A stretch of DNA of 64,000 nucleotides, from contig CP158635.1 of the NCBI GenBank assembly GCA_050273025.1, positions 17,236,001 through 17,300,000 on the forward strand, given 5' to 3'. This stretch comes from Cenococcum geophilum. Lineage: Eukaryota. Both the position numbers and the translations under genes were made by a program. Positions 8,071-64,000 of this stretch are shown here, one piece after another. The notes under the pieces were generated by a model. The model saw only the letters and a list, made by a program, of their open reading frames with translations, did no database searches and was not told where the DNA came from. Numbering within the stretch: position 1 is the stretch's first letter; each line of letters opens with the position of its first letter.

Positions 8071-8722
8071 ATACTTAAAGCCTCTTCTTTTTTATACGCG
8101 CAACGTCGTGCCCGTACTATTGCTATAATTTTATTACTTAGTAAAATAATACTATCTCTATATTCTTGTTATTCGAAAAAGGGGTTAGTTTATATTATAT
8201 TAGCGAGTCCTTTATCTTAACAGCCCTCTTCCTGTTTAGAGTATACTAGAGTAAACATTTAATCGTCTTACAATATTCGCTTTACTTCTAACGCTAAGTA
8301 TACGCGTCCTATAACTCTTAATAGTCTCTAAGTTCCCTAAGTAATTTATTATAGGGTCTTATATTTAATCTGCTACTATAAAGCTTAATAGTAACCTAGC
8401 GTAGGCCCTTATAGAGCTTAAGCGTTCTTAGGATGCGGAATAGAAGGCCCTAGATGCCCGTATTACGGCGTCTACCCGTTTACTTTATCTTAAGAAAGTT
8501 CGTAAGAAGGTCTATTTTAAGGAGTAGAAACTTATAAAATAAGGTTTATAGGAACTTAGTAATAAAAAAACGGATTCTTTTCTAACAGAGGAGAAAATAA
8601 CTCTAAGTAGTTCAGCAGTCGCTCTTCCTAAGTCCCCCTTAGGTGACTTATTCTTTAGCGATTCTTCTTTATCAATATTGCCTAACCTTTTCTCTTTTAA
8701 TACTTCTGTACCTTTCCTATAG
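8071..8722 (+). pseudogene. RIP-damaged antisense accessory gene of G3: Zn2Cys6-like plus coiled-coil protein; exons 8071-8299 and 8355-8722
   Basis: De-RIP reading MPKASSS...PCSRCSKEGLVCVALASPLSRQPSSCSECTRANIRSSCDVRS..DAE/WSRIQSAAAKLD...ARLLRLEKVRKKV. Same exon 1 length (229 nt) and intron length (55 nt) as in G4 and G5. Confidence 0.78.
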
Positions 8723-24266: not shown

Positions 24267-24705
24267 TATTACGGACGCTTTAAGTATAATGTTATAACTA
24301 CTTGGAGAGGAGTCGGAAGAAGCTAGTTAGTTAATTTAGGCACAGTCCAGGATAGAGCCAGTAGAGCCATGTGACGAGAAATGGTAACTAAGGTCATATG
24401 ATATAATCTGTATAATCTATAGAATCTGTGTAATCCGTAACAGAGTAGACAAAGTATACGTACCTCACGTATAAAGGGGATTTCTTAGAAGTACGGTTGT
24501 GTATTTAAAGGACCACAGTCCTTACCTAGATAGTTCTCTCCTTTATAGTAAATCTATTGGGCAACCACTCCACTAGTTATTATTACGTTGTTAACTTCTT
24601 ATTTACCTATATACCTAGCCTATTAATAAGTCCACCGTAGTTTTTACTATAAGGCTTTATTATATATTTACTACTAAGGTTATAGTATTAATAAAGTCGA
24701 ATAAT

Positions 24706-30700: not shown

Positions 30701-31100
30701 ACCACGTTAGGCTAAGACCTTTTAAAATTATATAGAGGATTTTACCGGTTATATTTAAGTTAAACCTATTAGCTAAGATAAAGATCTACCCTATATAGCA
30801 TATCGCAATACTAAAGCCAGCACACAGGAATATTAAGCTACTAGTTTACAAAGCAGACACGTATAGAGGATAAAAAGAAGACAAATAGCAAGTTTTAAAG
30901 ATTATTAGTTATAAGGACATTAACGATAAAATATAGTATAAGGTTAAGTAGATAGGCTATACTAAGACTACCTAGAAGCCACTAGAGAATTTAAAGAATG
31001 CTATAAGAAAGGTATAGGAGTATTGGAAAAGATTAGGTTAGGTAGCATTAATAAAAAAGGATTACTAAAGAATAAGTCACCTAAGGGGGACCTAAGAAGA
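24706..31100 (+). pseudogene. gag-pol of G4 (Gag-CCHC, PR, RT, RNase H, IN, chromodomain), many RIP stops; end approximate
   Basis: CINCGKQGHYARDC near 25708; ALVDSGATRNYI near 27770; YLDD near 28735; YYSRK..PELNY..KELL near 29250; chromodomain ..YEVKW.GY.ETTWEPLENL near 30875-31000. Confidence 0.9.
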
Positions 31101-31652
31101 GTAGTTACTGAACTACTTAGATTTGTTTCCTTCTCTATTAGAAGAGAATCCGTTTTTTTATTACTAAGTTCCTATAAACCTTATTCTATAAGTTTCTACT
31201 TTTTAAAACGGACCTTTTTACAAACTTTCTTAAGACGGAGTAACCGAGCGGACGCCGCAATACGGGCTTTAAGAGCCTTCTACTCTATATCCTAAGAACG
31301 TTCTAACTTAGTAAGGGCTTAAGACAGTTTACTATCTAGCTAAGCAGTAGCAGATTAAATATAAGACCCTAAGATAAATTAGTTAAGAAACTAGACAACT
31401 ATTAAGAGTAATAAGTTACGTATATTTAGTATTAGAGATAGAGCAAACGTTATAAAACAAATAAATATTCGCTTTAGTGCACTCCGCGTAAAAGAACAGT
31501 TATCGCGAAGATGGACTCGCTAACGTAATATAAACTAACCCCTTTTTTAAACAGCGAGAATATAGAGACGGTATAATCTTACTAAGAGACAATATTGTAG
31601 CAATGGTATAAGACCAACGAGCTGTAGACGAAAAAGGAGGAGCCTTTAGTAT
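31001..31652 (-). pseudogene. RIP-damaged antisense Zn2Cys6-like plus coiled-coil gene of G4; exons 31652-31424 and 31368-31001
   Basis: Same structure as in G3 and G5. Cys2 (TGT) and Cys5 (TGC) codons intact. Intron (G)TACGT...ACTAAT...TAG. Confidence 0.78.
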
Positions 31653-32181
31653 AATAAGTAAAGATGTTAACCAAATTGATTAGACGGATATTATACCTCT
31701 AGTAAACGACTTAGAGATATTTAGGATCTTTAAGGACGAAGATAAAGAGGAGGGAGATAGTGTTACGGACGCTTTAAGTACAATATTACGACTACTTAGA
31801 GAGGAGTCGGAAGAAGCTAGTTAGTTAATTTAGGTATAGTCTAAGATAGAGTCGGTAGAGCTATATAATAAGAAATAGTAACTAAGGTTATATAATATAA
31901 TCTATATAATCTGTAGGATCTATATAATCCGTAATAGAGTAGATAGAGTATACGTACCTTACGTATAAAGGGGATTTCTTAGGAGTATAGTTGTGTATTT
32001 AAAGGACCACAGTCCCTACCTAGATAGTTCTCTCCTTTGTAGTGAATCTTAGAATATAATTAAAGTTAATCTATTAGGCAACCACTCTACCAGTTATTAT
32101 TACGTTGTTAACTTCTTATTTACCTACATACCTAGCCTATTAACAAGTCCACCGTAGTTCCTACTATAAGGCTTCGTTATA

Positions 32182-36879: not shown

Positions 36880-38348
36880 TGTTGGTTATATAAGGGGATA
36901 TTACGTAGCTACGGTTTGTAGATAGTATAATAATTGTTCTTTTATATATTAGGGAGGGCAAGGAGCTTAAGGCTCCTCGCCACGCTACTACCGCGGCGAT
37001 ACGTGACGGCAACTTGCCGCACGTAACGGCAACTTGCCACCCGTAATGGCAATTTGCCTTATATAGTAACCACTTGCCTTTATTCCCAACACTAGCAACT
37101 CTTCTTTTATAGTTGCTATCTATATATATATATATACCGCTTAACTAGCGTAGTAAATATTAATCCTTTTTACTTACTATTGCCATTATAATATAAGTCT
37201 CGCTATCCTAAAATTTGCCTCTTAGCATATAGTACTTTCTTACTTAGGAGTTATAGGTAGATATCTTATTTAAAGGGCCACTAAGGCGCTAGTAGTAAGT
37301 AAGCCAATAGCAATTTTCTATCCCAGGGATGAAAAATCCTAATTAGCTAGGTTAAGTTAGGGTCTATAGAATATTATACTCTAAAAAGTTTTAGTAAGAG
37401 AATCTAACTAATTAGATAACTTTAACCGCTGGTTAAAGTTCCTAGATATCTTAAGACCTTATATAACTAAGAAATTTCTAGGGACTTCCTTTTAACCTAA
37501 CCTTTAACTTATATATATAAAGTATTTATATTAATAAACGTCTCTAATACCTTATTTAGGTTTGCCTTTATTATTATATCTACTAGGTTATCTTAGCTAT
37601 TAATTTATTAAATCTTAAAGAGTTTTTAACGCTTATAGGATTACTAAAGTACTATAATATTAATTATAAGGCACTTCCTTTTTATAGTATTAAGCTTAAC
37701 TAAACACTTATAGAGGGAATATAAGTTAGTGTATATAATTATAGGGATAATAGAAAGTTTAAGTTAATCTATAATTATCTTTAGGGTAGTTCTAATTATA
37801 ATTATTATATTAACTCCGCTAACTATTCTATATATCTCTAACGCTAAAACACTTTAGGTAATGCGCTTGCTCTTAATTAAGCTCTAATAAATAAGATTGC
37901 TATAGATTATAAAGTTATTCTCTTTAGTAAATTTATTTGTAATAATAATTTTATATCCTAACTAGGAGCTAAAATCTTTATTATTTATAAACAATCTATT
38001 AATAAATATAAAGAGCTTAGTAGTAGGAAGATTAATAGGTATATAAAGTAGTCCCTAATTAAAATAGTTTATTTACTAGAAAAGACGCTTATTTAGGGTA
38101 AGGATATTATCCTTAGTTAATTCCTAGTATTAGATAGCAACAGAGAGATTAAATAAAGCCTTAGGTTAATAGATAGAAGTAATATAAACTTCGCAAGCGC
38201 GTTACTCCATATATCCTTACTTTAGAGAATTAGCGTTAATAACGTTAATCTTTTTACCTTAACCCTTCTAGCGTAGAGCAATAGAATCCTTGTTTAGGGA
38301 GAGGATGCATCTATTAAAAAGTAATAGTATTATTAAACTAAGCTTTTC

Positions 38349-41300
38349 TGTTGGGAATAAAGGTAAGTGGTCACTATATGAGGTATATTGCCACTACGTA
38401 TGGCAAGTTGCCGTTACGTGCGGCAAGTTGCCGTCACGTGCCGCCGCGGCACTAGCGTAGTGAGGAACCTTAAGTTCCTTACCCCTTTCTTTAAGAATTA
38501 ATAATAAGAATAACAATTATTATACTATCTATAAACTATAGCTATATGATATCCCCTTATATAACTAATACTAATTAGTGGTTAACTTTACTATTATACT
38601 ATAGAGCAGCTAGGTATTCCACTAAGAAGAGATAAGCCACTATACTAGTGCTACTTGTGCTAAAGGAAGCTGTCTTTTAAGGTTAGAACTGGTTCTAAAC
38701 CTTAAATAGAACTCTTCCACGAATCTAAGGATTTAAAGGCTAGAACTAGTCTTAAGCCTTTCTAAGATTATAGATTCTTGCATCTATTACGCAGAATAAT
38801 ACGCTTTATAAGTCTTTGTAATTTAAGGCTAGAACTAGTTTTAAGCCTTATAATCGCAAATATATGTTACGAACGCGTACTAAATAATAAATATATATTA
38901 CAAACGCGTACTAAATAATAATCCCTACGCCAATAACACTTCCCTCCCTCTAAAAATATGGCTATGCCTACTTTAAACGACTAGGAAGACTCCTTACTAC
39001 TAGGGGTAGCTTTATACGCGAAACTTATTAATAAAAATTAGAATGAATTTACCTTTAATATAATAACTTATACCGTAAAATAAGTTAATAGCTTTCTTCT
39101 ACACTATATTATATTCTACTAAAGTAAATACTACGCTGATATATAGCTATAGGAATATTTTAGGAAGGATTTTATAGGATAGACCGCTAATACCTAGGCA
39201 CTTAGTAATATTAATATTGTTTAGGATTTTTAAGACTTTTTTTTATAGGAACGGGGTATACGTTACTAAGAATAGTAACCTAATTACTAGTAATATTTAG
39301 GCCGTTATTACTAGTATAAAAGAACTAGTATAGACAAAAGCTAAGATTATATATTAACTATAAAAACCTAGAACTAACCTATATTCTTTAAAAGGCAATT
39401 TTAATTTGGAATAAAAACCCTAAAACGCTACTCTCCTACCTAAAGGTACTCTCCTACCTAGAGGTACTCGTCCTCTACCTCCGCCACCTTTAGCTCCTCT
39501 ACTCTAGCTAACTAGTAACCCTCTACTATAAGATGTTATAAATCTAATAAAGGTATATTTGGATAAAGAGAAGAAGTTTAGAGGAGAATTATATAATATA
39601 CTTAGAGTAAAACTATAGGTCTTCTATAACTGTTGTAATAAGGTTAGAATTTAATACTACTAGTACTACTATGCTTTCTCTATTATATTAAAGGGACGGG
39701 CAGTAATATTCTATTATAACTATATTATGGGTAAAAACTATAGCTTTAATATAATGCTTTAGCTTACTAGAGCCTATTTTAAGACTAATAAGAATTACTA
39801 ACTTTATATATCTAAATGGCGAGAGATTATATTTTAGAGAGTTATTGCTTCTAACCTAATAAAGACTTATTTAAAGTGCCTTTAACTACTCTTTAATAAA
39901 CTTTAGAAAATCTAATATGGACTTACTAAAACTTACTAAAATAAGAACAGCCTAAGGGACTAGGTTATCTTAGTATACTATAGCGTTTTTAAGTATAACT
40001 TAGCGCTATATAAACCTATAAATACGTTTAAAGGAGTATATACCAAGCTACGCTCTATTATAGGTACTATAATACAAATATAAGAATCTTAATAGCTTTA
40101 TACCAAAAACCCTACCTAACTAAGTATTCCTAACTAATATAATTATAACTAGACTAATTAAATATATAGCGGCCGTAGTAGGGAATACGGTAAAGGGTAT
40201 AATTAATATTAACTATAAGGTAATTATAGAGGTCCTTATAGAGGTTTATTTTAAAGTAATTGCTAGAAGAAGTGCTATATTTATAAGAAGCTAAATTACT
40301 AGTTAACTAGATACTCCCTTAATAAGTGAAAAGAGGTATTTAATAAGTTCCGTTAAAGTATAAGAAATATTAGAAATCGCGAGGTTACTATGGCCTACTT
40401 TTAAAGCTTTCTGGTTTAATATAAAGGCGTAGAAGATCTTAAGGGTAAGGTTAATAAAACTAAATAGCTCCTTATAGATATAGAAATTAAAAACTACTCT
40501 CCTAACTAATACTTTACTAAGTATGGTAAGGTAGATAGTATATAAACTATTACTATTCTTAATAACCAATCTACGCTCCATTCTATTATAAAGTTAAATA
40601 TCTTTAATAAGCTAAAGGAGAGCTCCGCGTTCTCCTTTAATAATAGATACTTAGTAAATATCTTCTATAGTATTATACTAGATACTAGAGCCGCAGGAGT
40701 ATCTATAGTAGAAGAACCTTAAGTTTAAGCCCTTTAGCAGCTTAATAACTCTGTTTAAATTAACTATTTAACGGCAGGCTAATATATGATTTGTTTTAGT
40801 AAGGGTACTATAATCTCTCTTAGCATAATTAGGGTTTAAACCCCCTTAGGATATATTACTTTCTATATTATTCCTATAAATACTCCGTTTCTATTTTATA
40901 TTAAAGATATAAATTAATTAGGTATTAGGCTTAATAACCTTAAAAATATACTTATTTAGGGAGATAATTAGGTGCCTATTATGCGCAAGTAGGGTTACCC
41001 CTAGTTACTTCTTTATTAACTAAAAAAGAGTATTGCTTAGAGCTACTTAACTAAGTTAGAATTACGCCAACTATACTATTGTTTTAGCCACCTATCTATT
41101 TATTAATTACTTAGGGTTCTTTAGTAAGTAGGCTATAAAGTTAAGGTTAAAGCAATTAAGCATTTTATAAAGTACTACTATTACTACTAAATAAACCAGA
41201 AGTCCCCTAGCCGATTTAAGTTTACCCTTAAAAATAACTATAACTTTAACTTCTATATTATCGTTAACGTTATATATCTTAGCAGTAAGCTAGTACTTTA

Positions 41301-44300
41301 AGTTATTAACTTTTTAATTTCCTTCTAAGCCGCATAATTTTTAAAGGATATATTAGCTAGGAACGTATAGGATACCCTTTAGTTATATTAGATTAATATC
41401 TACCTAGGACCCCCTAATTAAATTATCCATAATATAGGAGAGAACTTCTTATCTATAGAGTTTTAATAATAGATAAAGGTAATAGTAATTAAGATTAAGG
41501 AAGTCCCCGTTAAGGCGTATAATAGTATTAAAAAAGTGGAGTAATATTACACGCTATTACGCCGCGTATATAAGATTATCTCTTTAGAACTAAAGGACGC
41601 TAGTAAAGAACTTACCTTGCAAATAGCTATTAAAGCTATTAATAATTCCGCTGGCCTAGATAGACTTATACCTATATTACTAGTCTTTAGCGCCTACCCT
41701 TAAATAACTAATAATTCTCTACTATCTCCCTCTATTATATAATAAGCTGAGGCTATTTATAAGGTAATAAAGGAGGTATAATGTCTCTACGTTATACGCT
41801 AGGTTAATAACGTATTAGGAATAAGAAATAGCCTAAATACCTTAACTATACTTAATCTGCCACTCTAGTCTAAAGTACGCGTATGGCGTAAAAAGGGAGG
41901 ATGGTTAGGCCTATATTAACTTATTATAATTAATAGTTAAACTTATACTATTTAAATGCCTTATAGACCTACTTAATTCCGTTTAACTATTATTAAGCCT
42001 TACTATAAAGATAATAATTCTAAGCCTTTATAGGATACCCTAGAAGATACCCTAAAAGAGAACTATAATTAATATGCTTTAGAAAACAACTACAATCCTA
42101 ATATAATTGTAGTAGATGCGCTATAACTATAACGCGGTAGAGGTCGCCTAAAGGGATTATAAAATTGCTAACATCTTATTAATTTTAAAGAATAATTTAT
42201 TGCCGCCATTAAGAATAGAGTTAAGTTATTAATGGCCTTTATAACAGCTAAAGAGAAGGCTAACTTTAAGCTCGCAAAATAGCTCTAAAAGGAAGATTAT
42301 ATTATAACCCTAGGAGTTCCTTTCTAAGTATTTAATAAGCAGGAGATCGACGGTCTTATTATAAGAGGAGTCTTTAAATTTAAGAAGTATAACCCTACTA
42401 AGTTTAATAAAGTTCGTATCTTTAAGTTAAGAATAGTTAACGAGATTAAAGGTAAAGCTACTAATACCCTATTTAAGAAATTAAGGCTTGTTATCTAAGG
42501 TTATAACGATAATAGTAAGGAGGTAATTCTTACGCAATCTCCTACGATTTAATAAGCTAGTTAGTAAATTATTATTACGCTAGCTCCCTCCTTAATAAAG
42601 AATAAAATAGCGGTTTATTTATAAGATATTACTTAAGCCTACACCTAATTAGAGACGTACCTTTAGCGCTTAATATTAGCATACCTTCTAGAGCAAATTT
42701 ACTACTAGTATCCTAAAGATACAATTATAGTTGTGCTTAAGCCATTATATAGAATTATAGAGGTAGGAACTTACTAGTAGGCTACCTATAGCAAGCACTA
42801 TAAAGAGAAACTTTTAATAACTACTTCTATATTTAATCCCTGCTTCCTTATTATAACCACAGGAACTCTATTTAGAATTATTGGCATATAAACTAACGAT
42901 ATAATTATCTTAGGGGACGACTAATTCTTAGCTCTTAAAGAAGATAAGCTAGTAAAGGCAAATCTTATAGTAAAGCTAAAAGAAAAGCTTAATTTAATAA
43001 CACTATTACTCTTTAATAGATGCATCCTTTCCCTAAATAAGGATTCTATTGCTTTACGCTAGAAGGGTTAAGGTAAGAAGATTAACGTTATTAACGTTAA
43101 TTTCCTAAAGCAAGGATATATGGAGCAACGCACTTACGAAGTTTATATTACTTCTATCTATTAACCTAAGGCTTTATTTAATCTCTCTGTTACTGCCTAA
43201 CACTAGAAACTAACTAAGGATAACGTTTTTGCCCTAAATAAATGTCTTTCTTAGTAAATAAACTATCTTAATCGGGGACTACTCTACGTGCTTATTAATC
43301 TTCCTACTACTAAGCTCTTTATATTTATTAATAGATCGTTTATAAATAATAAAGATTTTAGCTCCTAGTTAGGATATAAGATTATTATCGCGAACGAATT
43401 TACTAAAGAGAATAACTTTATAATCTATAGTAATCTTATTTATTAAAGCTTAACTAAGAGCAAGCGCGTTACCTAAAGTGTTTTAGCGTTAGAGATATAT
43501 AAAATAGTTAGCGGAGTTAATATAGTAATTGCAATTAAAACTACCCTAAAGATAATTATAGATTAACTTAAACTTCCTATTATCCCTATAATTGTATACA
43601 CTAACTTATATTCCCTCTATAAGTGTTTAGTTAAGCTTAGTACTATAAAGAAAAAGCGCCTTATAATTAATATTATAGCACTTTAACAATCCTATAAGCG
43701 TTAAAAACTCTTTAAGATTTAATAAATTAATGGCTAAGATAATCTAGTAGATATAATAATAAAGGCAAACCTAAATAAGGTACTAGAGATGTTTATTAAT
43801 ACAAATACTCTATATATATAAGTTAAAGGTTAGGTTAAAAGGAAGTCCCTAGAAATTTCTTAGTTACGTAAGGTCTTAAAATATCTAGGAACTTTAACCG
43901 GCGGTTAAAGTTATCTAATTAGTTAGATTCTCTTACTAAGACTTTTTAGAGTATAATATTTTATAGACCCTAACTTAATCTAGCCAATTAGGATTTTCTA
44001 TCCCTGGGATAGAAAATCGCTATTAGCTTACTTACTACTAGCGCCTTAGTGGCCCTCTAAATATAATATCTACCTATAACTCCTAAGTAAGAAAGCACTA
44101 TATGCTAAGAGGCAAATTTTAGGATAGCGAGACTTATATTATAATAGTAATAGTAAGTAAGAAGGATTAATATTTATTACGCTAGTCAAGCGGTATATAT
44201 ATATAGATAGTAACTATAAAAGAAGAGTTGCTAGTATTAGGAATAAAGGCAAGTGGTTACTATATAAGGTATATTGCCACCATATATAGCAAGTTGCCGT

Positions 44301-44456
44301 TACATGCGGCAAGTTGCCGTCACGTGCCGCCGCGGCACTAGCGTGGTAAGGAACCTTAAGTTCCTTACCCCTTTCTTTAAGAATTAATAATAAGAACAAT
44401 AATTATTATACTATCTACGAACCGTAGCTACGTGATATTCCCTTATGTAACCAACA
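38349..44456 (+). mobile_element. Full-length Ty1/Copia (GalEa-like) element C2
   Basis: 222-bp LTRs 38349-38570 and 44235-44456; TSD TTTTC (38344-38348 / 44457-44461); purine tract before the 3' LTR. Confidence 0.96.
38958..43863 (+). pseudogene. Copia gag-pol of C2 (order PR-IN-RT-RNase H), RIP-inactivated; boundaries approximate
   Basis: DTGAAG (40681), RQLHRRFGHP, VEAHNSIGKVERYH, KSRLVIQGY, RDITQAY, GMQTDD, FVDGSFANN, TDSYSLYE..KLGT.KEKRL.ID, NPAD.MTK (de-RIP). Confidence 0.88.
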
Positions 44457-45152
44457 TTTTCCTTTAGCTTTACTATAAGATTTGCCTTTACTAGCTTGTC
44501 TTCTTTAAGAGCTAAGAATTGGTTGTCTCCTAAAATAATTATATTATTAGTTTATATACTAATAATTCTAAATAAAGTTCCTATAGTTGTAATAAGGAAG
44601 CAGGGATTAAATATAGAAGTAGTTATTAAAAGCTTCTTTTTATGGTGCTTGCTGTAGGTAGCCTACTAGTAAATTCCTACCTCTATAATCCTATATAATG
44701 GCTTAAGCACAACTATAATTATATCTTTAGGATACTAATAGCGAATTTACTCTAAAAGGTATGCTAATATTAAGCGCTAAAGGTGCGTCTTTAATTAGGT
44801 ATAGGCTTAAGTAATATCTTATAAATAAACCGCCATTTTATTCTTTATTAAGGAGGAAGCTAGCGCAATAATAACTCGCTAACTAGCTTGTTAAATTATA
44901 GGAGACTATATAAAAATTACCTCCTTACTATTATTATTATAGCCTTAAATAATAAGCCTTAATTTCTTAAATAGGGCGTTAGTAGCTTTGCCCTTAATCT
45001 TATTAACTATTCTTAACTTAAAGATGCGAACTCTATTAAACTTAATAGGGTCATACTTCTTAAATTTAAAGACTTCTCTTATAATAAGACTATTGATCTC
45101 CTACTTATTGGATACTTAAAAAGGAGCTCCTAAAGTTATAATATAACCTTCC

Positions 45153-45598
45153 TGTAACGTAGCCCGCCTCTACGTCGCCATACGGCCAAAAAGACTGAGA
45201 GTGCTTGCGAACTTATCGTAAGCGCGGCGGGACCTAATATATATACTCTTACAATTGCCCTTTTCTCTGCGCGCTCGTTCCCGAGCGCTCGCAAAAATTC
45301 CTCTATACGCCCGTTTGGGCCTCTATAGGGATTAAATGCCAAGAGTATTACTATATTAGTTAGTCCCTAGTAATATAAGCAATCGGAATCTCCACTAACG
45401 CCTTATCGTATAAATGCGCGTTAGACTGTACTAGAGCGAAGTGACTAATAGGGATCGAACCCACAACACCTGGCCCCAGTAAGTTCGCAAGCACAATTAT
45501 AACGTGGCCTGCCTCCACGTCACTATACGGCCAAAAAGACTAAGAGTGCTTGCGAACTTATTGTAAGCGTGGCGGGACCTAATATATATACTCTTACA
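45153..45598 (-). mobile_element. TRIM (terminal-repeat retrotransposon in miniature), 446 bp
   Basis: Two 101-bp LTRs (45153-45253, 45498-45598; TG...CA); TSD CTTCC on both sides, single GGAAG at the empty site in C2 (42291-42295); PPT AGAGAAAAGGG on - next to the left LTR; 244-bp internal region. Confidence 0.93.
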
Positions 45599-48500
45599 CT
45601 TCCTTTTAGAGCTATTTTGTAAGTTTGAAGTTAGCCTTCTCCTTTGCTGTTATAAAGGCTATTAATAACTTAACTCTATTCTTAATAGCGGTAATAAATT
45701 GTTCTTTAAAATTAATAAGATATTAGCAATTTTATAATCCCTTTAAATAACCTCTGCCGCGTTATAGTTATAGCATATCTACTATAATTATATTAGAATT
45801 ATAGTCGCCTTTTAGAGCATATTAATTATAGTTCTCTTTTAGGGTATCTTTTAGGGCATCCTATAAAGGCTTAGAATTATTATCTTTATAATAAGGCTTA
45901 ATAACAGTTAAATGGAATTAAGTAGGTCTGTAAGGCATCTAAATAGTATAAGTTTAACTATTAATTATAATAAGTTAGTATAAGCCTAACTATCCTCCCT
46001 TTTTACGCTATACGCGTACCTTAAACTAGAGTGGCAGATTAAGTATAGTTAAGGTATTTAGGCTATTTCTTATTCCTAGTATATTATTAACCTAGTATAT
46101 AGCATAGAGACGTCACATCTCCTTTATTACCTTGTAAATAGCCTTAGCTTATTATATAATAGAGGGAGATAGTAAAGAATTATTAGTTATTTAAGGGTAG
46201 GCGCTAAAGACTAGCAATATAGGTATAAGTCTATCTAGGCCAGCGGAATTATTAATAGCTTTAATAGCTATTTATAAGGTAAGTTTTTTACTAGCGTCCT
46301 TTAATTTTAAAGAGATAATCTTATATACGCGGCGTAATAGCGCGTAATATCGTTTTACTTTTTTAATACTATTATATGCCTTAATAGGGACTTCCTTAAC
46401 CTTAATTACTATTACCTTTATTTATTATTAAAACTCTATAGATAAGAAGTTCTTTTTTATATTATAGATAATTTAATTAGGGGGTCCTAAATAGATATTA
46501 ATCTAGTATAATTAAAGGGTCTCCTATACGTTTCTGGCTAATATATCTTTTAAGAAACGCGCGGCTTAAAAGGAGGTTAAGAAGTTAATAACTTAGAGTA
46601 CTAGCTTACCGCTAAGATATATAATATTAACAATAATATAAAAGTTAAAGTTATAGTTATTCTTAAGGGTAAACTTAAATCGGCTAGGGGACTTCTAGTT
46701 TATTTAGTAGTAATAGCAATACTTTATAAGATGCTTAATTACCTTAACCTTAACTTTATAGCCTACTTACTAAAGAACTTTAAGTAATTAATAAATAGAT
46801 AGGTGGCTAAAATAATAGTGTAGTTGGCGTAATTCTAACTTAGTTAAGTAGTTTTAAGTAATACTCTTTTTTAGTTAATAAAGAAGTAACTAGGGGTAAC
46901 CCTACTTACGCATAATAGGTACCTAATTATCTCCCTAAATAAGTATATTCTTAAGGTTGTTAAGCCTAATACTTAACTTATCTATATCTTTAATATAAAA
47001 TAGAAATAGAGTATTTATAGAAATAATATAAAAACTAATATACCCTAAGGGGGTTTAAACCCTAATTATACCGAGAGAGATTATAGTACCTTTACTAAAA
47101 TAAATTGTATACTAGCCTACCGTTAAATAGTTAATCTAAATAAAGCTATTAAGCTACTAAAGGGCTTAAACTTAAGGTTCTTTTACTATAGATATTCCTA
47201 TGGCTTTAGTATCTGGTATAATACTATAGAAGACATTCGCTAAGTATTTATTATTAAAGGAAAATATAGAGCTCTCCTTTAGCTTATTAAAGATATCTAA
47301 CTTTATAATAGAATAGAGCGTAAATTGGTTATTAAGGATAGCAACGGTTTATATACTATTTACCTTACTATACTTAGTAAAGTATTAGTTAGGTAAGTAG
47401 TTCTTAATTTCTATATCTATAAGGAGCTATTTAGTCTTATTAACCTTACCCTTAAGGTCTTCTACGCCTTTATATTAAACTAGAAAGCTTTAGAAGTAGG
47501 TTATAGTAACCTTATAATTTTTAACATTTCTTATACTTTAACAGAACTTATTATATGCCTCTTTTTACTTATTAAGGGAGTATTTAGTTAACTAGTAATT
47601 TGGCTTCTTATAAATGTAGTATTTCTTCTAGTAATTACTTTAAAATAAACCTCTATAAGGACCTCTATAATTACCTTATAGTTAATATTAATTATACCCT
47701 CTTCTATATTCCCTACTACGGCCACTATATATTTAATTAGTCTAGTTATAATTATATTAGTTAGGAATACTTAGTTAGGTAGGGTTTTTGGTATAAAACT
47801 ATTAAGATTCTTATATTTATATTATAGTACCTATAGTAGAGCGTAGCTTAGTATATACTTTTTTAAATATATTTATAGGTTTATATAGCGCTAAGTTATA
47901 CTTAGAAACGTTATAGCATACTAAAATAACCTAGTCCCTTAGGCTGTTCTTATTTTAGTAAGTTTTAGTAAAGCTATATTAGATTTTCTAGAGTTTATTA
48001 AAGAGTAGTTAAAGGCACTCTAAATAAGTCTTTATTAGGTTAGAAGTAATAACTCTCTAGAATATAGTCTCCCCCCATTTAGATATATAAAGTTAGCAAT
48101 TCTTATTAGTCTTAAAGTAGGCTTTAGTAAGCTAAAGTATTACATTAAAGTTATAGTTTTTACCTGTAATATAGTTATAATAGAATATTACCGCCTATCC
48201 CTTTAATATAACAGAGAAAGCGTAATAATACTAGTAGCGTTAAATTCTAACCTTATTATAACAGTTATAAAAAACCTATAGTTTTACTCTAAGTATATTA
48301 TATAGTTCTTTTTTAAACTTCTTCTCTTTATTTAAATATACCTTTATTAGATTTATAACTTCTTATAGTAAAGGCTTACCGGTTAGCTAGAGTAGAGGAG
48401 GTAAAGGCGGAGTAACTCTAAGTAGGAGAGTACCTTTAGGTAGGAGAGCAGCTCTAGGTAGGGGGTTAGTATTCTAGGGGTTTTAATACGAATTAAAGTT

Positions 48501-49571
48501 GCCTTTTAAAGAATATAGGTTATTTTTAGGTTTCTATAGTTAATATATAATCTTAGCTTCCGTCTATATTAGTTCTTCTATACTAGTAATAACGGCCTAA
48601 ATATTGCTAGCAATTAGGTTACCGTTTTTAGTAATATATACCTTATTCCTATAGAGAAAGTCTTAAAAGTCCTAAACAATATTAACGTTACTAAGTACCT
48701 AGGTATTAGCAGTCTATCCTATAAAATCCTCCCTAAAATACTTATATAGTTATAAGTCGGCGTAATATCTATTTTAGTAGAATATAATATAGTATAGGAG
48801 AAAGCTATTAACTTATTTTATGGTATAAGTTATTATATTAAAGGTGAATTTATCCCAATCTTTATTAATAAGTTTTGCGTACTTAGCTACCCCTAGTAGT
48901 AAAGAGTCTTTCTAGTTATTTAAGGTAGGCGTAGCCATGTTTTTAAAGAGAGGGAAGTATTATTAGTGTAGGGATTGTCGTTTAGTACGCGTTCGTAATA
49001 TATATTTATTGTTTAGTACGCGTTTATTATTTAATACGCGTTTATTATTTAGTACGCGTTTATTATTTAGTACGCGTTCGTGACGTATATTTGCGGTTAT
49101 AGGGCTTAGGACCAGTTCTAGCCTTAAATCGCGAAGACTTATAAAGCGTATTGTTCTACGTAATAGACGCAAGAATCCGTAATCTTAGAAAGGCTTAGGA
49201 CTAGTTCTAGCCTTTAAATCCTTAAATTTATAGAAGAATTCTATTTAAGGTTTAGAACCAGTTCTAACCTTAAAAGACAGCTTTCTCTAGCACGAGTAGC
49301 ACTGGTATAGTAGCTTGTCTCTTCTTGGTGGAATACCTAGCTATTCTATAGTATAACAGTAAAGTTAACTACTAATTAGTGTTGGTTACACAAGGGGATA
49401 TCACGTAGCTACGGTTCGTAGATAGTATAATAATTATTCTTTTATATGTTAGGGAGGGCAAGGGGCTTAAGGCTCCTCGCTACGCTACTGCCGCGGCGAT
49501 ACGTAACGGCAACTTGCCACCCGTAATAGCAATTTGCCTTATATAGTGACCACTTGCCTTTATTCCTAACA

Positions 49572-53883: not shown

Positions 53884-56800
53884 TGTTACGGACGCTTTAA
53901 GTACGATGTTACGACTACTTGGAGAAGAGACGGAAGAAGCTAGTTGGTTGATTTAGGTATGGTCTAGGATAGAGCCGATAAAACCATATAATGAGGAATG
54001 GTAATTAGGTCACGTGATATAATCTATATAATCTGTGTAATCTATATAATCTATAATAGAGTAGATAGAGCAGATAGAGCAGATAAAGCAATGACTTTCT
54101 TAAGAGTACGGATGTGTATTTAAAGGACCATAGTCCCTACCTAGATAGTTCCTTTCCTTGTAGTAATTCTCAGAATATAATTAGAGTTAATCTGTTAGGC
54201 AACCACTCCACCAGTTATTATTATATTATTAACTTTTATACTTGCATTTCTTATACACCTAGCCCAATAATAAGCCTATTGTAGTTCTTGCTACAAGGTT
54301 CCGTTATACAATTACTACCTAGTTACGATATTAATATAAGAAGTTAAACAACATGCTACCAAAAGCAGCCACTATAATGCCATCGACGGCAGCAACTACT
54401 TTAGGGACAGGAGGTAATACTAGTATAGCAGATACTGACTTATAGCAACCTGTAACGGTCGGACAGCTATAGGAAATAGTTAACTAGCTAACAGCTAATA
54501 ATATAGTATTAGAAGAAAGACTTAACGGGATAGGAGCAGCAAAGATTAAGCTATTATTAATTAAGAGATTTATAGAAAAGAGGTTAAAGCTTAAAGGATT
54601 CCTTATGTAGATATACTTTAAGGTCTTATAAGAGGGAGTGAAGTTACTTATACCTATGGATCGGATAGCCTACGCAGGACTATTCTTATTAGGAAAAGCA
54701 CTTAAGTGGTTTAAACTTTACCTTACGGAGATACAGGTAAACGGAATAACGACTACTAACCAAAATATGCGATTTATGTTCTTAAGTTAGGAAGAATTCG
54801 TAGAATGACTTACGCAGATGTTTAGAGACCCGGAAAAAACAACTATAGCGGAAAGAAAACTCTAGAACCTTATATAATAAACTTTAGTAATTAAGTATAC
54901 AATATAGTTCTAGACACTAGTAATATAAGTAAAGTAGAATAATAGGGCGCTTATGGCATAGTATAAACAGGGACTTAAGGTTAAAGTCTAGGATGTAATT
55001 ATCCTAATAAAAGATGCGGATACCCTAAGGGAACTAATAGATTAGGTAATTAAGATTAATAATTGGATTTACTAAAGGGAACAGGCTAAGAGAGGCTAGG
55101 ATAAAGTTCTATAGTTATATAAGGCGCAGAGTACGTAACGATAAAAGCTAAGTTAGAAATTATAGTATAGCGTAGAGCTAATAGACCTAAGTAGCACTAA
55201 AGAAACCTATAAGAAATAGAGTAAACTATAGAAACCTAGAGGATAAGGATTAAGTAATTAAAGGTCTAAGGAGCAGAGGCTGAATTAGGGATCTTAATAG
55301 TAGAAGATATTTAGGCGGACTCTATAGCAAGAGAAATGGTTTAAAGAAGGAGCTTATATAAATTGCGGAAAATAAGGTTATTATATTAGAGACTATAAAA
55401 GTAAGTAGAGTTACTACGTAGTAAAAGGCATGAGATTAGTAGACGATATATACGTATAAAGGGACGATAATATACTGCGAGGAATAAAAGAATGTTTAAT
55501 TAGAAGTTTTACGTTTTGTTATAATAATATATACCGAATTTATAAGGACGCTAAGTATAGCGCAAGCTATTAGCTATAAGAGCTAGCACCTATAGGATAT
55601 AGAGGAACTAATAAACTAGTTCGCAGATTGGATATTAAGGACGATAAATTTAACCTAGGCGAAATATTCCGTAATAATAAGGTAATAAGGGCCGCTTACT
55701 AGGAGCGAGTAGACCTCGGAGATATTATACTAGAGGTAGAGGATAATTCTACTATAAAATAGGGAATATTAGTAGGGATTGAAACCCTACTAGATATAAT
55801 GTCTATTGCTTTGCGAGATATAAGAGAAGTAGGACAGCGAACTATTTCGGCACTTAATAAAGGTAAAAGGCTAAAGGCTTAAGATTCTTATAGCAAGATA
55901 AGAGATAACTAAGATTCTTAAAACGAGATAAGGCAAGCTTAAGGACCTATAATAGATAATAACCAATAGAGCAGAGTAGTAGCTTAGTTTAAAAATATAT
56001 AAATAAGCTCGGGACGGAAGTTCCTATAGGTATAAGATTCTTAAGACGAGATAAGTAAGATTTAAGACTCTTAAGACGAGATAAGAACACTAAGTAAGCT
56101 TAGTTAGACTAAGGCTGAAGCTAAGCTTAAGTTAGAAGTAAGCTCGGGATTAAAGAACCTAAGGGGTTAAGAATTTGGGGTATAAATTAGGACACCTATA
56201 GATAAGAGGTAAGAAGCTTCTTTATAGATTAGAGAATCTACGGTATAAATAGTAATTAGACTAGGAGATGAATATATAGACTTAGAGGATTTACTAGTTA
56301 AATAAAGTGTTCGGACTAAAGATTAAAAAGTTAATACTAGGATTAAAAAGTAAGACGACTTTAAGGATTAGAGCGTAAGGCGTAAACTAAAAGAAACTAT
56401 AGAAGAGTTTAGGTAAAGAATTATCGCATAGTAAGAATAGAAACTAGATAAGAGATCTAGTATATTAGGACGTATAAAGGATAGAGTACTAGTATAAAGA
56501 ATTACTAATAGACTAAAAGCAGGTATACTAAGAGCTAAGTAGCTTACTAAACTAAAAGATAAAGAGGATTTAGGGATTCTAATTAGGTTTAAGGAACAAT
56601 ATACTAAAGGCTATTACGACGTAGTAATAAGAAGATACTTCCTTACGGATAGACCGTATATACTCTAGTAGCTATACCAAAAGTAGTATAGATAAAGGCA
56701 CAATAATAAGTGGGAAGATTTCTATATATAGTTAGATAAAAAAGTTATCTAAGACCACCCGATTATAGAGAAGGCCATAACGTATATTAAAGAAGCCTTA

Positions 56801-59800
56801 ATTATAACATTAAAGGATCTAAAGGAACGTTTAGAGGACTAGAGAAGTAAGAGATATATCTTAGTACCTATAAATAAAGTCGCAATATTTAGATTAGTAC
56901 AATAAAGGTTTAAACTTAGGGATAAAGATAAGCTAAGAGTTAACCTAAAGCACCTAGTATACTATACGTTATTATAAATTGCGTATATAGACGATATATA
57001 CAAAATGTATAAGAATCTGAAGGAAAAAAATCGGAAATACCCTATAAGGATATACTAGATAACGGATGAGTAATAGTATAAGAATGCTAAATATATATAT
57101 AGATAGCATCCAGCAGAGGTCCAAGAGGAAGGAAGTTTAGTACTTTAACCAGGAAGATTCCTTATAGAAGAATGCTTAGATAGATAATAGTGGTAGGAAT
57201 GCCCAGAGAACACGTATTTATGGTATATTAAAGATAAAAAGCGAACTAGGTATTAGCTAAAGAGTAAGCCAAATATACTAGGATTAAGCAGCTAATAGTT
57301 AGGAAAAGTAGAGGCCTATAGGACTAGAGGGAGCCAGTAATAGAGCCTTAGACCCTTAAAGGAATTTAAGGATAACACCTAAATTTATAAATTAATTAGT
57401 AAGATTAGCAGTTTAAAGCGCTAATAAATAGTAGAGCAACGCGAAACTATATTTTACTAGTAGCAGTTAAAAGAATGGGACTACCTTATAGACAAAAGAA
57501 GTAACTTTACCTATTAGTTATAATTTTAGGAGATCCAATAACCTATAGAGGAGGGATTATTAATCTTAAAACAGGACCTATTTAGATAACTATCAAAGGA
57601 AGATAAATTAAGATGTCTTTTAATATTCTACCATTAGGACGGAACAAGGTAGTATTAGGTATGCCTTAGTTATAGAAATATAATCTAAGGATCAATTAGA
57701 TTACAGGTTAGGTTAATATTAAAGATACTTAACGCTATAAGATATAATAATAAGCCAAGTTAGTATGGTACTAAGTAGGAGCAACCTATAAAGAAATAGA
57801 AAAAGGACTAAGTTATATACTAAAGAGATACCATAAGTATGGCAAGAAACTATAGTCACTAAAAAATAAAAAGCTATTAAAATATATAGCATGGGACTAT
57901 AAGATAGAATTAGAACTAGGGACAAGTCTAAAGTTCTTTCCAATCTATAAGCTTACCAAAGAAGAAGGTAGAGTATTAAAAGAGTTTATCTAAGAGAACT
58001 TATAAAAAGGATATATTAGACCATTATAGTTATTAGCAGGATATCCAATACTATTTATACTAAAGAAAAATAGCAAACTAAGGCTGTGTATTAACTATAG
58101 ACAGTTAAACAGCATTACTAGAAAGAATAGGTATCCTTTACCCTTAATTAGCGAAATCTAAGATAGGATAGGCAATACGCAAATCTTTATAAAGATAGAT
58201 CTAAGATAGGCGTACCATTAGATTAGGATTAAGAAGGGCAATAAATAAAAGGCAGCCTTTAGGTTAAAGAAAGGACTATATAAACTATTAGTTATATAAT
58301 TTGGATTTATAAATATACTAGTAATATTCCAGAAGCGTATTAACAATGTATTAGGAGAACACTTGGATGAATTTGTTATAGTATATCTTAACGATATTAT
58401 TATCTACTTAATAACCAAGAAAGAACACAGAGAATATGTTAAATGGGTTTTAAAAAGACTATAAGAAGAATAGATGCTAGTAGTAATTAAGAAATGCGAG
58501 TTCTTTACCAGGAAGACCGATTTTATTAGATTTATTATTAAACTAGGCTAACTTAGTATAGATCTAAAGAAGATCGAGGCTATAGTAAATTGGTAGGAAC
58601 TAAAGAACGTTATATAGTTAAAATCATTCCTAGGGTTTTGCAATTACTATAGAAGGTTTATAGCGCAGTGGTTAAAGAATATTAAGCCATTTACGAGGTT
58701 AATAAAGAAAGAAGAACTATAGGCATGGGGAGAGGAGCAAAGAGAACTCTTTAAGAAAGTCAAAGAGTTGTTTACTTAGGGGCTAGTTCTTAAGATCTAT
58801 TAACTAGGACTAGAGACGGTTATAAAGACGGATGCATTAGACTATACACTAGGGGCATACTTTATATAAAGGTATTAAGATAGATGGCACCTAGTGGCAT
58901 ACTATAGTCGAAAGATAACACCACTAAAATTAAACTATAACATCTATAATAAGGAGTTATTAGGTATAGTTATAGCATTAAAGAAATAGAGAGCATTCTT
59001 ATAAGGCATAGAGAAACCATTTATAGTTAAAACGGATTATAAGAACCTAACAGGATTCCTAATAATAAAGGAACTTAACTAAAGACAAGTTAAATAGGCA
59101 GAGATGCTTACAGAATACTATTTTAAGATTTAGTATACTAAAGGTACAGATAATACGCGGGCAGATACTCTAAGCTGTAAAGCTAAACTATAAAATAAGA
59201 AAAAGCTATCGGGGGCTTTATTATAAAAAGATATAGACGGATTAATTAGATATAATTATCCAAAAATTATAGTAACTTAAGAAGATAATAAACTAAAGAA
59301 AGTCTACAAGATACCGGAAAGCTTTTAGGCATAAAGAATTCTAGAAGTATAGCTAGAAGATCCACAAATAGATATATACAAAAATCGAGAAGCGAAGTAT
59401 ATCCTAAGAAGCATAGCAGAACAGTTTATAGAAGACTTCTATAAGGGACTAACTTAAGGATATAATAGAGCTATGGGCTTAGTGTTAAGACTCCAGGAGA
59501 AGTACATTATTGACAGAATCTAAAGGATAGCTAGAAAAGTTATAAAGAAATATTTAGATTACTAAAGGAACAAACTAATAAGGTATAAGCCATATAGAGG
59601 GCTACAACCTATTAAAACACTAGAAAGACCATAGGAGGTTATATTATAGAACTTTATTATTAAGTTACTAAAATTAAGAGATCCTATTACCGGATAAAAT
59701 TATAACGTAATCTTAGTAATAATAAATAAGCTTACAAAGTAGGGATACTTTATAGCCTATACGGAAGAAATATCAGTAGAAGATATCGCTAGAATCTATA

Positions 59801-61855
59801 TTAAAGAAGTGTTTATAAAACATAGAGCACTAAATAAAATCATATTAAATAGAAATCTAAGATTTATAGCAGTATTCTAGGAAGTATTCTTAGTAGAGTA
59901 AGGAGTTTAAGCAGCAACTTCCACCGCATACTATCCGCAGACAGACAGTTAAACGGAAAGATTAAATTAGACGCTAGAGCAGTATCTAAGGCATTATATT
60001 AATCACGTATAGAATAATTAGGTATTACTATTACTAGTTATATAGTTTACATACAATACAACACCTTAAAAAGGAATAGGCACATTACTATTTAAGGCAA
60101 ATTATGGATATAAGCTAAGAACATCGTTATTACCACGGCAAGTAAAGAAAACGAGTAGTACAGCTAAAGAAAGAATAAAGACATTAATAAATCTTTATAT
60201 AAACCTTATAGAATCAGCAAAGAAAGTATAAAAAAGAATAAAAAAGTACTATAATACTAAGAGATCTAAGGGACTAGATCTTAAGGAGGGAGATAAAGTA
60301 TAGCTACTATATAAAAATTTTAAGAGTTAACAACTAAGCAAGAAGTTAAACTATATCAAACTAGGACCTTTTAAAATTATATAAAAGATTTCACTAGTCA
60401 CATTTAAGTTAAACCTACTAGCTAAAATAAAGATTTACCCTATATAGCATATCGCAATACTAAAGCCAGCACATAGGAATATTAAGCCACCGGTCTATAA
60501 AGCAGACACATATAGAGGATAAGAAGAAGACAAATAGTAAGTATTAAAGATTGTTAATTATAAGGACATTAACAACAAAATATAGTATGAGGTTAAGTGG
60601 ATAGGCTACACTAAAACTACCTAAGAGCTACTAGAGAATTTAAAAAATGCTATAGAAAAGGTATAGGAGTATTAGAAGAGATCAGGTTAGGCAGCATTAA
60701 TAAAAAAGGATCACCAAAGAATAAGTTACCTAAGGGGGACCCAAGAAGAGCAGTTGCCGAACTACTTAGATCTATTTCCTTCTCTATTAAAGGAGAGTCC
60801 ATTCTTTCATCGCCTAGTTTCTATAAACCTTATTCCACAAGTTTCCACTCCTTAGAACGCACCTTCTCGCGCACCTTCTTAAGACGGATTAACCAAGCGG
60901 AAGTAGCCAAACGAGAGTCTAGAGTACGTTATTAAGCATTAGCGGCCTCTCTCTTAGCATCCTAAAAACGATAAAGTTTAGCTAGAGCGACTAACAGCTC
61001 GTTATCTAGCCGCGTAGCAGCAGATTAAATATAAGACCCTAAGACAAATTAATTAGGGAACTAGAAGACTATTAAGAGTTATAGGACGCGCATACTTAGC
61101 GTTAGAAGTAGAGCGAATATCACAGGACAATCGCATATTTACTTTAGTGCACTCTAAATAAGAGGATAGTTATTAAGATAAAGGACTCGCCAGCGTAATA
61201 CAGACCAACCCCTCTTTTAAATAACGAGAACATAGAGACGGTATAATTTCACCAAGAGATAGTATTATAGCAATAGTACGAGACTAATAAACTGTAGAAG
61301 AGGATAAAGGAGCTTTAGGCATTATAAGTAACAATATTAACTAAATTAATTAGACGGACATCACACCTCTAGTAAACAACTTAGAGATATTAGGAATCTT
61401 CAAGGACGAAGATAAAGAGGAGGGAGATAGTGTTATGGACGCTTTAAGTACAATATTATAACTACTTAGAGAAGAAACAAAAGAAGCTAGTTGGTTAATT
61501 TAGGTACGGTTTAGGATGGAGCCGATAGAACCATATAATAAGGAATAGTAATTAGGTTATATAATATAATTTATATAATCTATATAATCTATATAATCTA
61601 TAATAGAGTAGATAAAGCAGACAGAGTAGATAGAGTAATGACTTTCTTAGGAGTACGGATGTGTATTTAAAGGACCACAGTCCCTACCTAGATAGTTCCT
61701 TTCCTTGTAGTGATTCTCAGAATATAATTAGAGTTAATCTATTAGGCAACCACTCCACCAGTTATTATTACGTTGTTGACTTTTATACTTGCATTTCCTA
61801 TACACCTAGCCTAATAACAAGCCTATTGTAGTTCTTGCTACAAGGTTCTGTTATA
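53884..61855 (+). mobile_element. Full-length Ty3/Gypsy chromovirus copy G5
   Basis: 425-bp LTRs 53884-54308 and 61431-61855; TSD TAAAA (53879-53883 / 61856-61860); gag ATG at 54353; PPT at 61416-61430. Confidence 0.96.
60650..61322 (-). pseudogene. RIP-damaged antisense Zn2Cys6-like plus coiled-coil gene of G5; exons 61322-61094 and 61038-60650 (205 aa reconstructed)
   Basis: ATG intact; Cys1, 3, 5 and 6 codons intact; exon 2 has a 21-nt in-frame insertion relative to G3 and G4. Confidence 0.8.
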
Positions 61856-64000
61856 TAAAAAGGAATAATTATAAATGGCCTTATATATAATATAAGGCTC
61901 TATAACTATAGACTACGCCTAAAATAATACTATCGCTATATATAATAGGGATATACCTAATCTATATACGCAGTATAGGTATACTACGGCTACTATATAG
62001 GCCCCTACAATATAAGATATTGCCTAAATTAAGACTAAATAAAATATATAAACTGCTACTAAAGTATATATAAGGCGTAGAAGAGAGAAGACTATATTAA
62101 ATATAGGAGATAGAAGGTAAGGGCTTAATAGCTGCGGGAATAACTATACGCTAGGTTATATAAATGGAAATAATAGGCGATAAGCTAGGGGGACGTAGGT
62201 ACCTTTTTAGCGTTTCCTACCTTTAATACTAGAGGGCTAGGCTAGCTATCCCAAGCCTTAACGGGCTAGAAGTAACGCTGCGCGATATTACTAGACTAAT
62301 TAGGGATATAAGGGTTATAGGGGACACAAGGGAGAGGACGCCCTATAGAAAGACCCCTATAGACAGTAATAGTAGGCTTAAGACTAGGATAATTAAGAAT
62401 TAGACTTAATGCGGTAAATATAATATTTATAGCCGACCTATAAAGGGTATATAGCTAACTAGTAAGAATAGGGGAAGAACTGGTAATAATAATAGATTTA
62501 GATATAGAAGCGCTAATAGGAATACAAGATATGGGAATAGAAAGCTCTATATAAAATAAGTAGTAACTAGGGTGTAAATATAAGAGATAAAAGCTCTAAA
62601 TATTCTAAAAAAAGTAGAAATAAAAGAAGTAAGGAATAAAGGAGAGTTAAAGGACCCTTGCTAGGGGTTCGCTACCTATCTATTATATAGTATAACTACG
62701 GCAACACAAACCACTACCTCGTAAGGCCCCTACTAGATAGTCTAGACCTAGAGAAATATTATATCCTTGCTATATAAGAGCCGTATTATAATACCTTTAT
62801 ATAATTAATATACTGCCCCTAAGGATTCTAGCTCCTATATAAACTAAAAGCAGCTATATATATATGCTTTATAATTAGCAAGGCTATTAGCCTATCCTTA
62901 TAGTTATAGCAGGTAGTTAACCTAGATATTATAGTTATAATAATCTAAATATATAGGGGACTGGTATAAATTATTAATATATATAACCCTAGGGTTAAAG
63001 GGGTCCTATAAATAGAGAATATTATATTAGTAATAAGCTTACTAGAAACTAAAGGTATAGAGTTTATCCTATTAGGAGATATAAACCTCTACTACCCACG
63101 GTAGGGGGGTATCTATATTACTGTAGATTAATAGTTAAAGTGCCTACTAAGAGCTATAGATATCTGGGGCCTTAAGCTAGCTACCCCCCTAGGAGCAATT
63201 ATATGGCAATAAGGCACCGCTAGAAGTATAATTAACCTTATATTTATAGATAAAGGCCTATATTAAAGACTTAAAAGATATAACCCTAAAGAAGAATAGG
63301 CACTTACCCTAGACTATATCCCTATCTAGATATAGCTAGACCTAGATACTAAAGCGTAACTAAATAGAAAAAGATATATAATAAGGAAGCTTAAGATAAA
63401 CAGTTTCTTTAATATAGTTAAATAATAACTCTAAGACCTAGAAAAAATCCACCTAATACCAAACGAGCGAGGCTTATTAGCTACCCCTAAGGAAATTAAT
63501 TAAAGACTAAAAAGGATCTAGGCAGCAATTAAAAATGGGCTAGAAGAGCACTGCCCGATCTTAAAACTGGGCCCCTATGCGCAACACGTATGGTCTATAT
63601 AATATATAGTTTTAGTTACCAGCTAATAATAAGTAAAAAGAAAATATATAAGTAGCTATAACCCTAAAGATAAGAGACGATATAAAGATATAAGAAACTA
63701 GCTAAAGAATACCCTAAAAAAAGAAGTAAGGAATAACTAGAGACGGTTTATAAATGAGTATACTTCTAACCTAAGCCTCCCCTATAATAAGGGCCTTTAG
63801 GCTATAGTAAAATAGGTAAAGAAAAAGGTAGGGCGCCTAGCAGAAGACTTATACCTACTACCCCTATAAAGAGTAGGAGAATTATAGGCTATAAATGATA
63901 ATAATAAAAAGGCAAAGATTTTTATAGAAAGGTTCTTCCCCTAACTAGCTCTAGTAGACCTTAGTAATATTATGGGCGAAACACTAGTAACTTACCTGTA

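Follow-up and report, generated by a model that had tools for sequence, protein, structure and literature searches.

Evidence for a 55-nucleotide spliceosomal intron in an accessory gene antisense to gag-pol in a fungal Ty3/gypsy chromovirus family

Can a retrotransposon carry a spliceosomal intron, and if so, of which transcript? The question is raised by a 64,000-nucleotide (nt) stretch of the Cenococcum geophilum genome (GenBank assembly GCA_050273025.1, contig CP158635.1, positions 17,236,001 to 17,300,000 of the forward strand; hereafter the window). Here three copies (G3, G4 and G5) of a Ty3/gypsy chromovirus of about 8 kb, all altered by repeat-induced point mutation (RIP), have the same 55-nt segment interrupting a protein-like frame on the strand opposite pol. 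We are highly confident that the antisense intron is real, and consider it very probable that, in this chromovirus family, an accessory gene opposite gag-pol is interrupted at the segment by a genuine spliceosomal intron of the U2 type (GT-AG).

The initial annotation had described the interruption in G3, G4 and G5 as exactly 55 nt long, ending in TAG and containing a CTAA-like branch motif, and this is what the three copies hold. In G5 the segment lies 3' of the pol domains and about 340 nt inward of the 3' long terminal repeat (LTR). The antisense frame occupies one frame before the segment and the +1 frame after it, with all downstream stops being TAA or TAG, and excision of the 55 nt joins the two frames through a T|GG codon. 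The parts of the gene in the three copies are:

61039 to 61093, minus strand: intron of G5, 55 nt, beginning ATGCG, with acceptor TAG and the donor GT changed to AT by RIP
61094 to 61322, minus strand: exon 1 of G5, ATG at 61322-61320, remains of a six-cysteine motif, three RIP-type stops
60650 to 61038, minus strand: exon 2 of G5 with stop codon (60652-60650), long-helix region and C-terminal motif, six RIP-type stops
8300 to 8354, plus strand: intron of G3, 55 nt, beginning ATACG and ending TAG
8071 to 8299, plus strand: exon 1 of G3, start codon changed to ATA by RIP
8355 to 8722, plus strand: exon 2 of G3 with stop codon
31369 to 31423, minus strand: intron of G4, 55 nt, beginning ATACG and ending TAG
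31424 to 31652, minus strand: exon 1 of G4, start codon ATA
31001 to 31368, minus strand: exon 2 of G4 with stop codon

The segment is preceded by AAGT in G5 and G3 and by AAAT in G4, and CTAA-like motifs occur 12-17 nt before its end. The window is AT-rich throughout (G+C about 0.27-0.42, TA/AT 1.5-1.8, (CA+TG)/(AC+GT) 0.3-0.5), which is the signature of fungal RIP. The G5 frame of 205 codons contains nine in-frame stops (six TAA and three TAG), every one at a site where two un-RIPed relatives, L003 and L001, have CAA, CAG, CGG or CGT. All three window copies are dead relics with AT instead of GT at the donor. They are 85% identical over the antisense-gene stretch and represent one repeat family; they are therefore not independent and prove little by themselves. 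Compared with G3 and G4, exon 2 of G5 is longer by an in-frame insertion of 21 nt at about 60923-60943. Its codons are present in L003 and absent from L001, which marks the length difference as an old in-frame polymorphism within the family.

A scan of metagenome contigs from JGI found 308 relatives, from which 80 loci were kept. Of these, 78 gave 81 segments (L041 and L063, which do not span the site, were dropped), so that together with the window copies 84 DNA sequences could be compared. The segment is exactly 55 nt long in all 84, and the antisense gene is found in every one of them, across at least four metagenome data sets and the window, which is not the pattern of a one-off transduction. 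Position +2 is T in 84/84, the 3' end is AG in 81/84 (including 3/3 window copies), and position +1 is G in 25 copies and A in 59. Copies with G at +1 have a higher G+C content (0.406) than those with A (0.372), as expected if the A arose from G by RIP in a TpG context. The initial annotation had read the AT donor as a RIPed GT (TpG to TpA) and had proposed a search for less-RIPed copies with a GT donor. Such copies exist, and they include both un-RIPed loci that cover the site, L003 and L001 (G+C 0.50 and 0.51; (CA+TG)/(AC+GT) 1.01 and 0.95), whose segments read GTACGC...TAG and GTGCGC...TAG, respectively.

The two un-RIPed loci also bear on the claim that removal of the segment restores the frame and creates a tryptophan codon. 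Excision of the 55 nt yields uninterrupted open reading frames (ORFs) from the first Met, of 209 codons in L003 and 197 codons in L001, with Trp at the junction; in L003 the junction is GCTGAGT|GGTCTC, exactly as predicted, while without splicing the frame reaches a stop 35 codons on. Branch points in fungi follow a CTRAY consensus 10-30 nt before the acceptor, and the candidates in these segments only come near it (CTAAT, CTAAG and GTAAC in the window family, TTGAT in L001 and L003).

Is the antisense frame under constraint? We compared L001 with L003 by codon position. In exon 1, antisense third positions differ at 26 of 77 sites versus 10 of 155 at positions 1 and 2 (p 3e-7), the antisense third position here coinciding with the third position of the pol frame. 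In exon 2, where the antisense third position coincides with the second position of pol, it differs at 39/117 sites versus 29/233 at positions 1 and 2 (p 7e-6), and the third positions of the pol frame are among the least variable (15/117). Since variation in exon 2 peaks at antisense position 3 and pol position 2, it is the antisense frame that is under constraint. Crossing the segment shifts the antisense phase by one with respect to pol, which is what an intron of 55 nt demands; the segment itself shows 11 differences in 55 nt, with no surplus at third positions of the pol frame. Length variants point the same way. In the 78 copies that cover the whole gene (three in the window and 75 loci), exon 1 measures 226, 229, 232 or 241 nt and exon 2 takes 13 lengths between 353 and 416 nt; the differences are multiples of 3 in 78/78, and the intron is constant at 55 nt in 78/78.

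In the un-RIPed relatives the pol frame stays open for about 300 codons past the chromodomain, through the antisense gene, the intron and a purine tract into the LTR. Over the antisense gene it contains no stops, compared with 2-12 in each of the four frames used by neither gene (L003, L001). The antisense gene starts about 110 nt inward of the 3' LTR boundary, and its stop codon falls at pol residue 932, still inside the chromodomain but among its final codons (in L003, Pfam Chromo covers pol residues 894-942). With the pol frame open over it, the gene does not lie in a non-coding spacer. Both strands are thus open here, the antisense gene being embedded in an open and weakly constrained pol tail:

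7181 down to 3453 of L003 and 4294 down to 32 of L001, minus strand of these loci: open pol frame, equivalent to about 60650-61560 of G5

Do any proteins already join the two exons? A profile built from the three X-masked exon 2 translations, searched against 1.84 billion proteins, matched 71 proteins at E≤1e-3, of which 17 reached E≤1e-10. With two further searches included, six of the family (P0001, P0006, P0075, P0076, P0078 and P0082) read A-E-W-S directly across the junction, with the predicted Trp and without the 55 nt; all come from JGI contigs of 921-1423 nt. P0075 begins with Met and has the full six-cysteine motif, and P0078 (239 aa) extends to the conserved C-terminus. The P0001 contig is absent from the JGI metagenome contigs that we scanned, though its sequence fits the search pattern. 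Other members read through the segment, as expected of translated unspliced DNA: its 3' part in P0003, P0009, P0027, P0067, P0073 and P0118, and its 5' part in P0140 and P0141. The later protein searches returned unnamed JGI and ENA proteins only, with no named NCBI or UniProt relative. One JGI family member, P0013, bears the source name 'vacuolar-type H+-ATPase subunit I/STV1', probably through a spurious coiled-coil match.

The predicted product is a protein of about 200 residues with a basic N-terminus, six cysteines, a long helix, an acidic linker and a conserved hydrophobic C-terminal motif. In P0075, P0078, L001 and L003 the cysteines are spaced C-x2-C-x6-C-x13-C-x2-C-x8-C. The Zn(2)-Cys(6) cluster has the spacing C-x2-C-x6-C-x5-12-C-x2-C-x6-8-C, and the middle loop of 13 residues is thus one above this range. 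AlphaFold2 predicts a single helix over residues 98-200 of P0078 (pLDDT 94-98), which holds the most conserved block of the family; the model is confident for this long helix only. The product shares with the Gal4-type Zn(2)-Cys(6) family (PF00172) six cysteines of similar spacing followed by a long helix and possible dimerising coiled coil, and differs from it in the longer middle loop and a Pfam score below the cut-off; zinc and DNA binding are putative. By motif and model, then, the product resembles a Gal4-type zinc cluster joined to a dimerising helix; we do not assign it to that family, and it matches no curated one. The nearest ESM Atlas cluster, auto-named 'Zn(2)-C6 fungal-type domain-containing protein' (Ascomycota, score 0.91), offers a lead only. 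Pfam searches of the X-masked window exons gave nothing but a sub-threshold LEM match (E 0.056), NCBIfam gave no meaningful match, and DUF3716 gave none for P0075, P0001, P0064 and P0073 at E≤10.

The RNA evidence is indirect. The sequencing runs aligned at 80% likeness were one of raw RNA (X21), one of DNA (X1) and two that are presumed to be RNA (X22 and X23). X22 and X23 placed 34 and 51 contigs on the stretch, versus 24,077 for X1; so few contigs on a highly repeated stretch suggest that neither is a genomic library. One contig in each (718 nt, depth 8.5 in X22; 748 nt, depth 25 in X23), about 13% diverged from G5, aligns over 60626/60596-60901, then halts precisely where exon 2 begins, at base 61038, and resumes with a piece from 61187. 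The resulting joint is a skip of 148 nt, reading CT..AC on the plus strand and hence GT..AG on the minus strand, and letters may lie between its two sides. Judged from the listed piece lengths, the unspliced form is incompatible with the length of these contigs. The joint is not found in the DNA run X1. The acceptor is thus supported in transcript-like data bearing the species label of the window; the donor there could be that of either a 148-nt or a 55-nt intron. X21 placed 49 reads on the stretch, none of them informative at 61039-61093; ten of its reads at 60604-60705 have the first mate always on the plus strand and share only four start places, and are therefore too few for a strand call. 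In the X22/X23 contig, 30 other letters replace 84 nt around the G5 start codon (61282-61367), and the 5' part of exon 1 is therefore not the same in the expressed relative.

The 148-nt joint opens the possibility that the intron runs from 61186 to 61039, with donor GCGA|GTCCTT, or that alternative donors share one acceptor. A length of 148 nt equals 1 modulo 3, as does 55, and would join the same two frames. The additional 93 nt, however, encode the second half of the six-cysteine motif, conserved in P0064, P0075, P0078, P0140, L001 and L003, and have the coding periodicity of exon 1; the 55-nt junction is the one used by 6/6 clearly intron-less ORFs, GTCCTT is a poor donor by consensus, and the joint itself may have letters between its sides. 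We judge this alternative very unlikely. A 57-nt intron with its donor two bases upstream (CTAA|GTATGC in G5) would need no RIP, this upstream GT being present in 68/84 copies, G5 and G3 among them. Such an excision leaves the upstream frame unchanged, and that frame further on meets TGA and TAG stops and yields no conserved product, while the A-E-W-S of the six intron-less ORFs requires the downstream GT and the L001 and L003 ORFs are intact only after removal of 55 nt; the chance that it is correct is close to negligible. Both lengths were rejected on these grounds.

It might also be argued that the antisense gene does not exist: its frames would be shadows of the open pol tail, and the 'intron-less' proteins would stem from DNA variants that have lost the 55 nt. 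With no stop in the pol frame over the whole region in L003 and L001, length variants in multiples of 3 could stem from pol alone, and the six JGI contigs could be DNA. Yet the differences in exon 2 are concentrated at pol second positions, opposite to the pattern expected from a constrained pol tail; losing 55 nt would throw pol out of frame, and DNA copies without the segment number 0 of 84. GT..AG occurs in the segment on the antisense strand only, and the antisense protein has strongly conserved blocks over its 71 database relatives. This explanation is highly improbable in our view.

Several observations weigh against an antisense intron with a zinc-cluster-like product. The window copies themselves read AT at the donor and cannot function, and both the donor GTGCGC and the branch candidates only approximate the fungal consensus. 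The six contigs that cross the junction could in principle be intron-less DNA, and P0064 (from a 2113-nt JGI contig) has AE-CT-FHV-RSAAA in place of the AE-W-SRV-QSAAA of the six spliced ORFs; either a spliced form that has diverged and is one codon longer or an inexact deletion in DNA might account for this. The RNA nature of X22 and X23 is a guess from their labels, their joint fits either a 148-nt intron or a 55-nt intron followed by 93 nt whose divergence prevents alignment at 80%, and among the reads and contigs open to base-level inspection none shows the 55-nt junction in RNA of the window's organism. On the side of the product, P0075 scores 13.6 bits (E 0.075) with Pfam Zn_clus (PF00172) versus a cut-off of 21, with half of the profile matched, P0064 scores 9.4 bits, and a profile search against solved structures gave no significant match (best E 0.17).

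Taking these points into account, we return to the 55-nt antisense intron and propose the following account. In the sense genomic RNA the intron reads CT..AC and would be left in place by the spliceosome; because of this, it would be inherited by every new DNA copy through the unspliced genomic RNA. A separate antisense transcript, probably starting in or near the 3' LTR, would undergo splicing and encode the protein of about 200 residues. The initial annotation had likewise argued that the intron survives reverse transcription because it is antisense to the genomic RNA, with a separate antisense mRNA implied, and its retention in 84/84 copies as CT..AC on the pol strand fits that argument. 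We postulate that the product most likely binds nucleic acid as a dimer and regulates the expression of its own element, as an accessory factor resembling the viral protein HBZ. In the window copies, RIP has turned the donor GT into AT and added the in-frame TAA and TAG stops.

How does this gene compare with known systems? In 84/84 copies it runs antisense to gag-pol in the region from the pol domains to the 3' LTR. Genes of this kind have been known since 2011, and the present one is a well-documented further member, not a new class. The closest known case is brtn, which Zhao et al. reportedly described in 2011 (Virology 417:248). In the available parts of four papers (PMC8365987, PMC7264820, PMC4227169, PMC5987419), brtn is an extra gene carried in antisense by the Boty-like Ty3/gypsy elements of Botrytis cinerea and Sclerotinia sclerotiorum. 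Like the gene reported here, it belongs to chromodomain Ty3/gypsy elements of fungi, is antisense to pol, is placed between the domains of pol and the 3' LTR, and occurs throughout the family. The comparison is one of descriptions; the gene here lies wholly inside an open pol tail, a feature that those parts do not mention for Boty. Plant antisense ORFs (aORF-3R), such as Grande gene23 and those of RIRE2, Retand (TRP28) and PvRetro13, are similarly antisense, located between pol and the 3' LTR and conserved in most copies, and are suspected nuclear or DNA-binding regulators, with an own promoter in Grande, according to the available text of PMC7264820 and PMC11963269. As described there, they differ in their plant hosts, in mostly belonging to non-chromoviruses, in regions between POL and the 3' LTR of 2.9-6.6 kb, and in encoding unrelated proteins (TRP28). 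The word 'intron' occurs 0 times in either PMC7264820 or PMC11963269. A literature search, in which subscription journals were mostly outside coverage, found no paper that describes introns in antisense genes of fungal retrotransposons.

The transcript of HBZ, the antisense gene of human T-cell leukaemia virus type 1 (HTLV-1), is spliced and comes from the 3' LTR. HBZ thus resembles the proposed gene in being a spliced retroelement antisense transcript from the 3' LTR side that encodes a coiled-coil nuclear regulator. It differs in belonging to an exogenous animal retrovirus and in encoding a basic leucine zipper (bZIP) protein with no sequence relation to the product here. HBZ of HTLV-1 is mentioned as an antisense gene in the available text of PMC7264820 and PMC11963269.

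More tentatively, and with considerable doubt on our part, many ascomycete LTR retrotransposons may encode a Gal4-like zinc-cluster and coiled-coil regulator from a spliced antisense mRNA starting at the 3' LTR, as a fungal counterpart of HBZ; in the present family this would be a gene of about 650-700 nt, including the intron, inside an open pol tail, with one piece of DNA read from both strands and the antisense frame the more constrained. An intron persists in a retroelement only if the genomic RNA remains unspliced, and a conserved antisense intron is therefore a built-in marker of a second, antisense messenger. Reverse transcription PCR across the junction would accordingly be a clean assay for such an accessory gene of fungal retrotransposons. 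The full overlap with an open pol frame is a naturally occurring example of antiparallel dual coding whose two constraints are separable. This two-strand embedded coding, together with the zinc-cluster-like product, makes the gene worth following up. Elements of this type make up the AT-rich, RIPed compartments found in many fungal genomes, and a true DNA-binding regulator would give a handle on how such elements control their own expression.

The window consists of nested copies of LTR retrotransposons. Translated with X at stops, plus frame 0 of G5 matches the Pfam families RVT_1, two RNase H models (RT_RNaseH) and SH3_Tf2-1, while the other five frames match 0 Pfam families. Pol domains and LTRs are thus present in G5, and the relative L003 adds Integrase_H2C2, rve and Chromo (32.9 bits), as in a chromovirus. 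From its position, a purine-rich tract immediately before the 3' LTR of G5 is presumably the polypurine tract. The features of the three elements are:

53884 to 61858, plus strand: element G5, with its LTR pair
53884 to 54311, plus strand: 5' LTR of G5
58057 to 60474, plus strand, frame 0: pol domains of G5 (reverse transcriptase, RNase H, Tf2-type integrase SH3), translated with X at stops
61414 to 61430, plus strand: purine-rich tract immediately before the 3' LTR of G5
61431 to 61858, plus strand: 3' LTR of G5, beginning TGTTA; the antisense gene reads inward from the side of this LTR
24269 to 32181, sense strand plus: element G4
31763 to 32181, plus strand: 3' LTR of G4
7542 to 7962, minus strand: 3' LTR of G3, an element whose sense strand is minus and which runs from 7542 onward in the opposite orientation

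At 4614-7541 the window contains a truncated fourth copy of the same element. Because it starts within exon 2 of the antisense gene (at the equivalent of 60884 of G5), it has neither the intron nor the 3' LTR. Another RIPed repeat family forms an inverted pair of about 6 kb (36880-42986 versus 42978-49571, 88-91% identical), and further blocks are shared between 13767-15219 and 62546-63999 and between 14862-17609 and 35690-32924.

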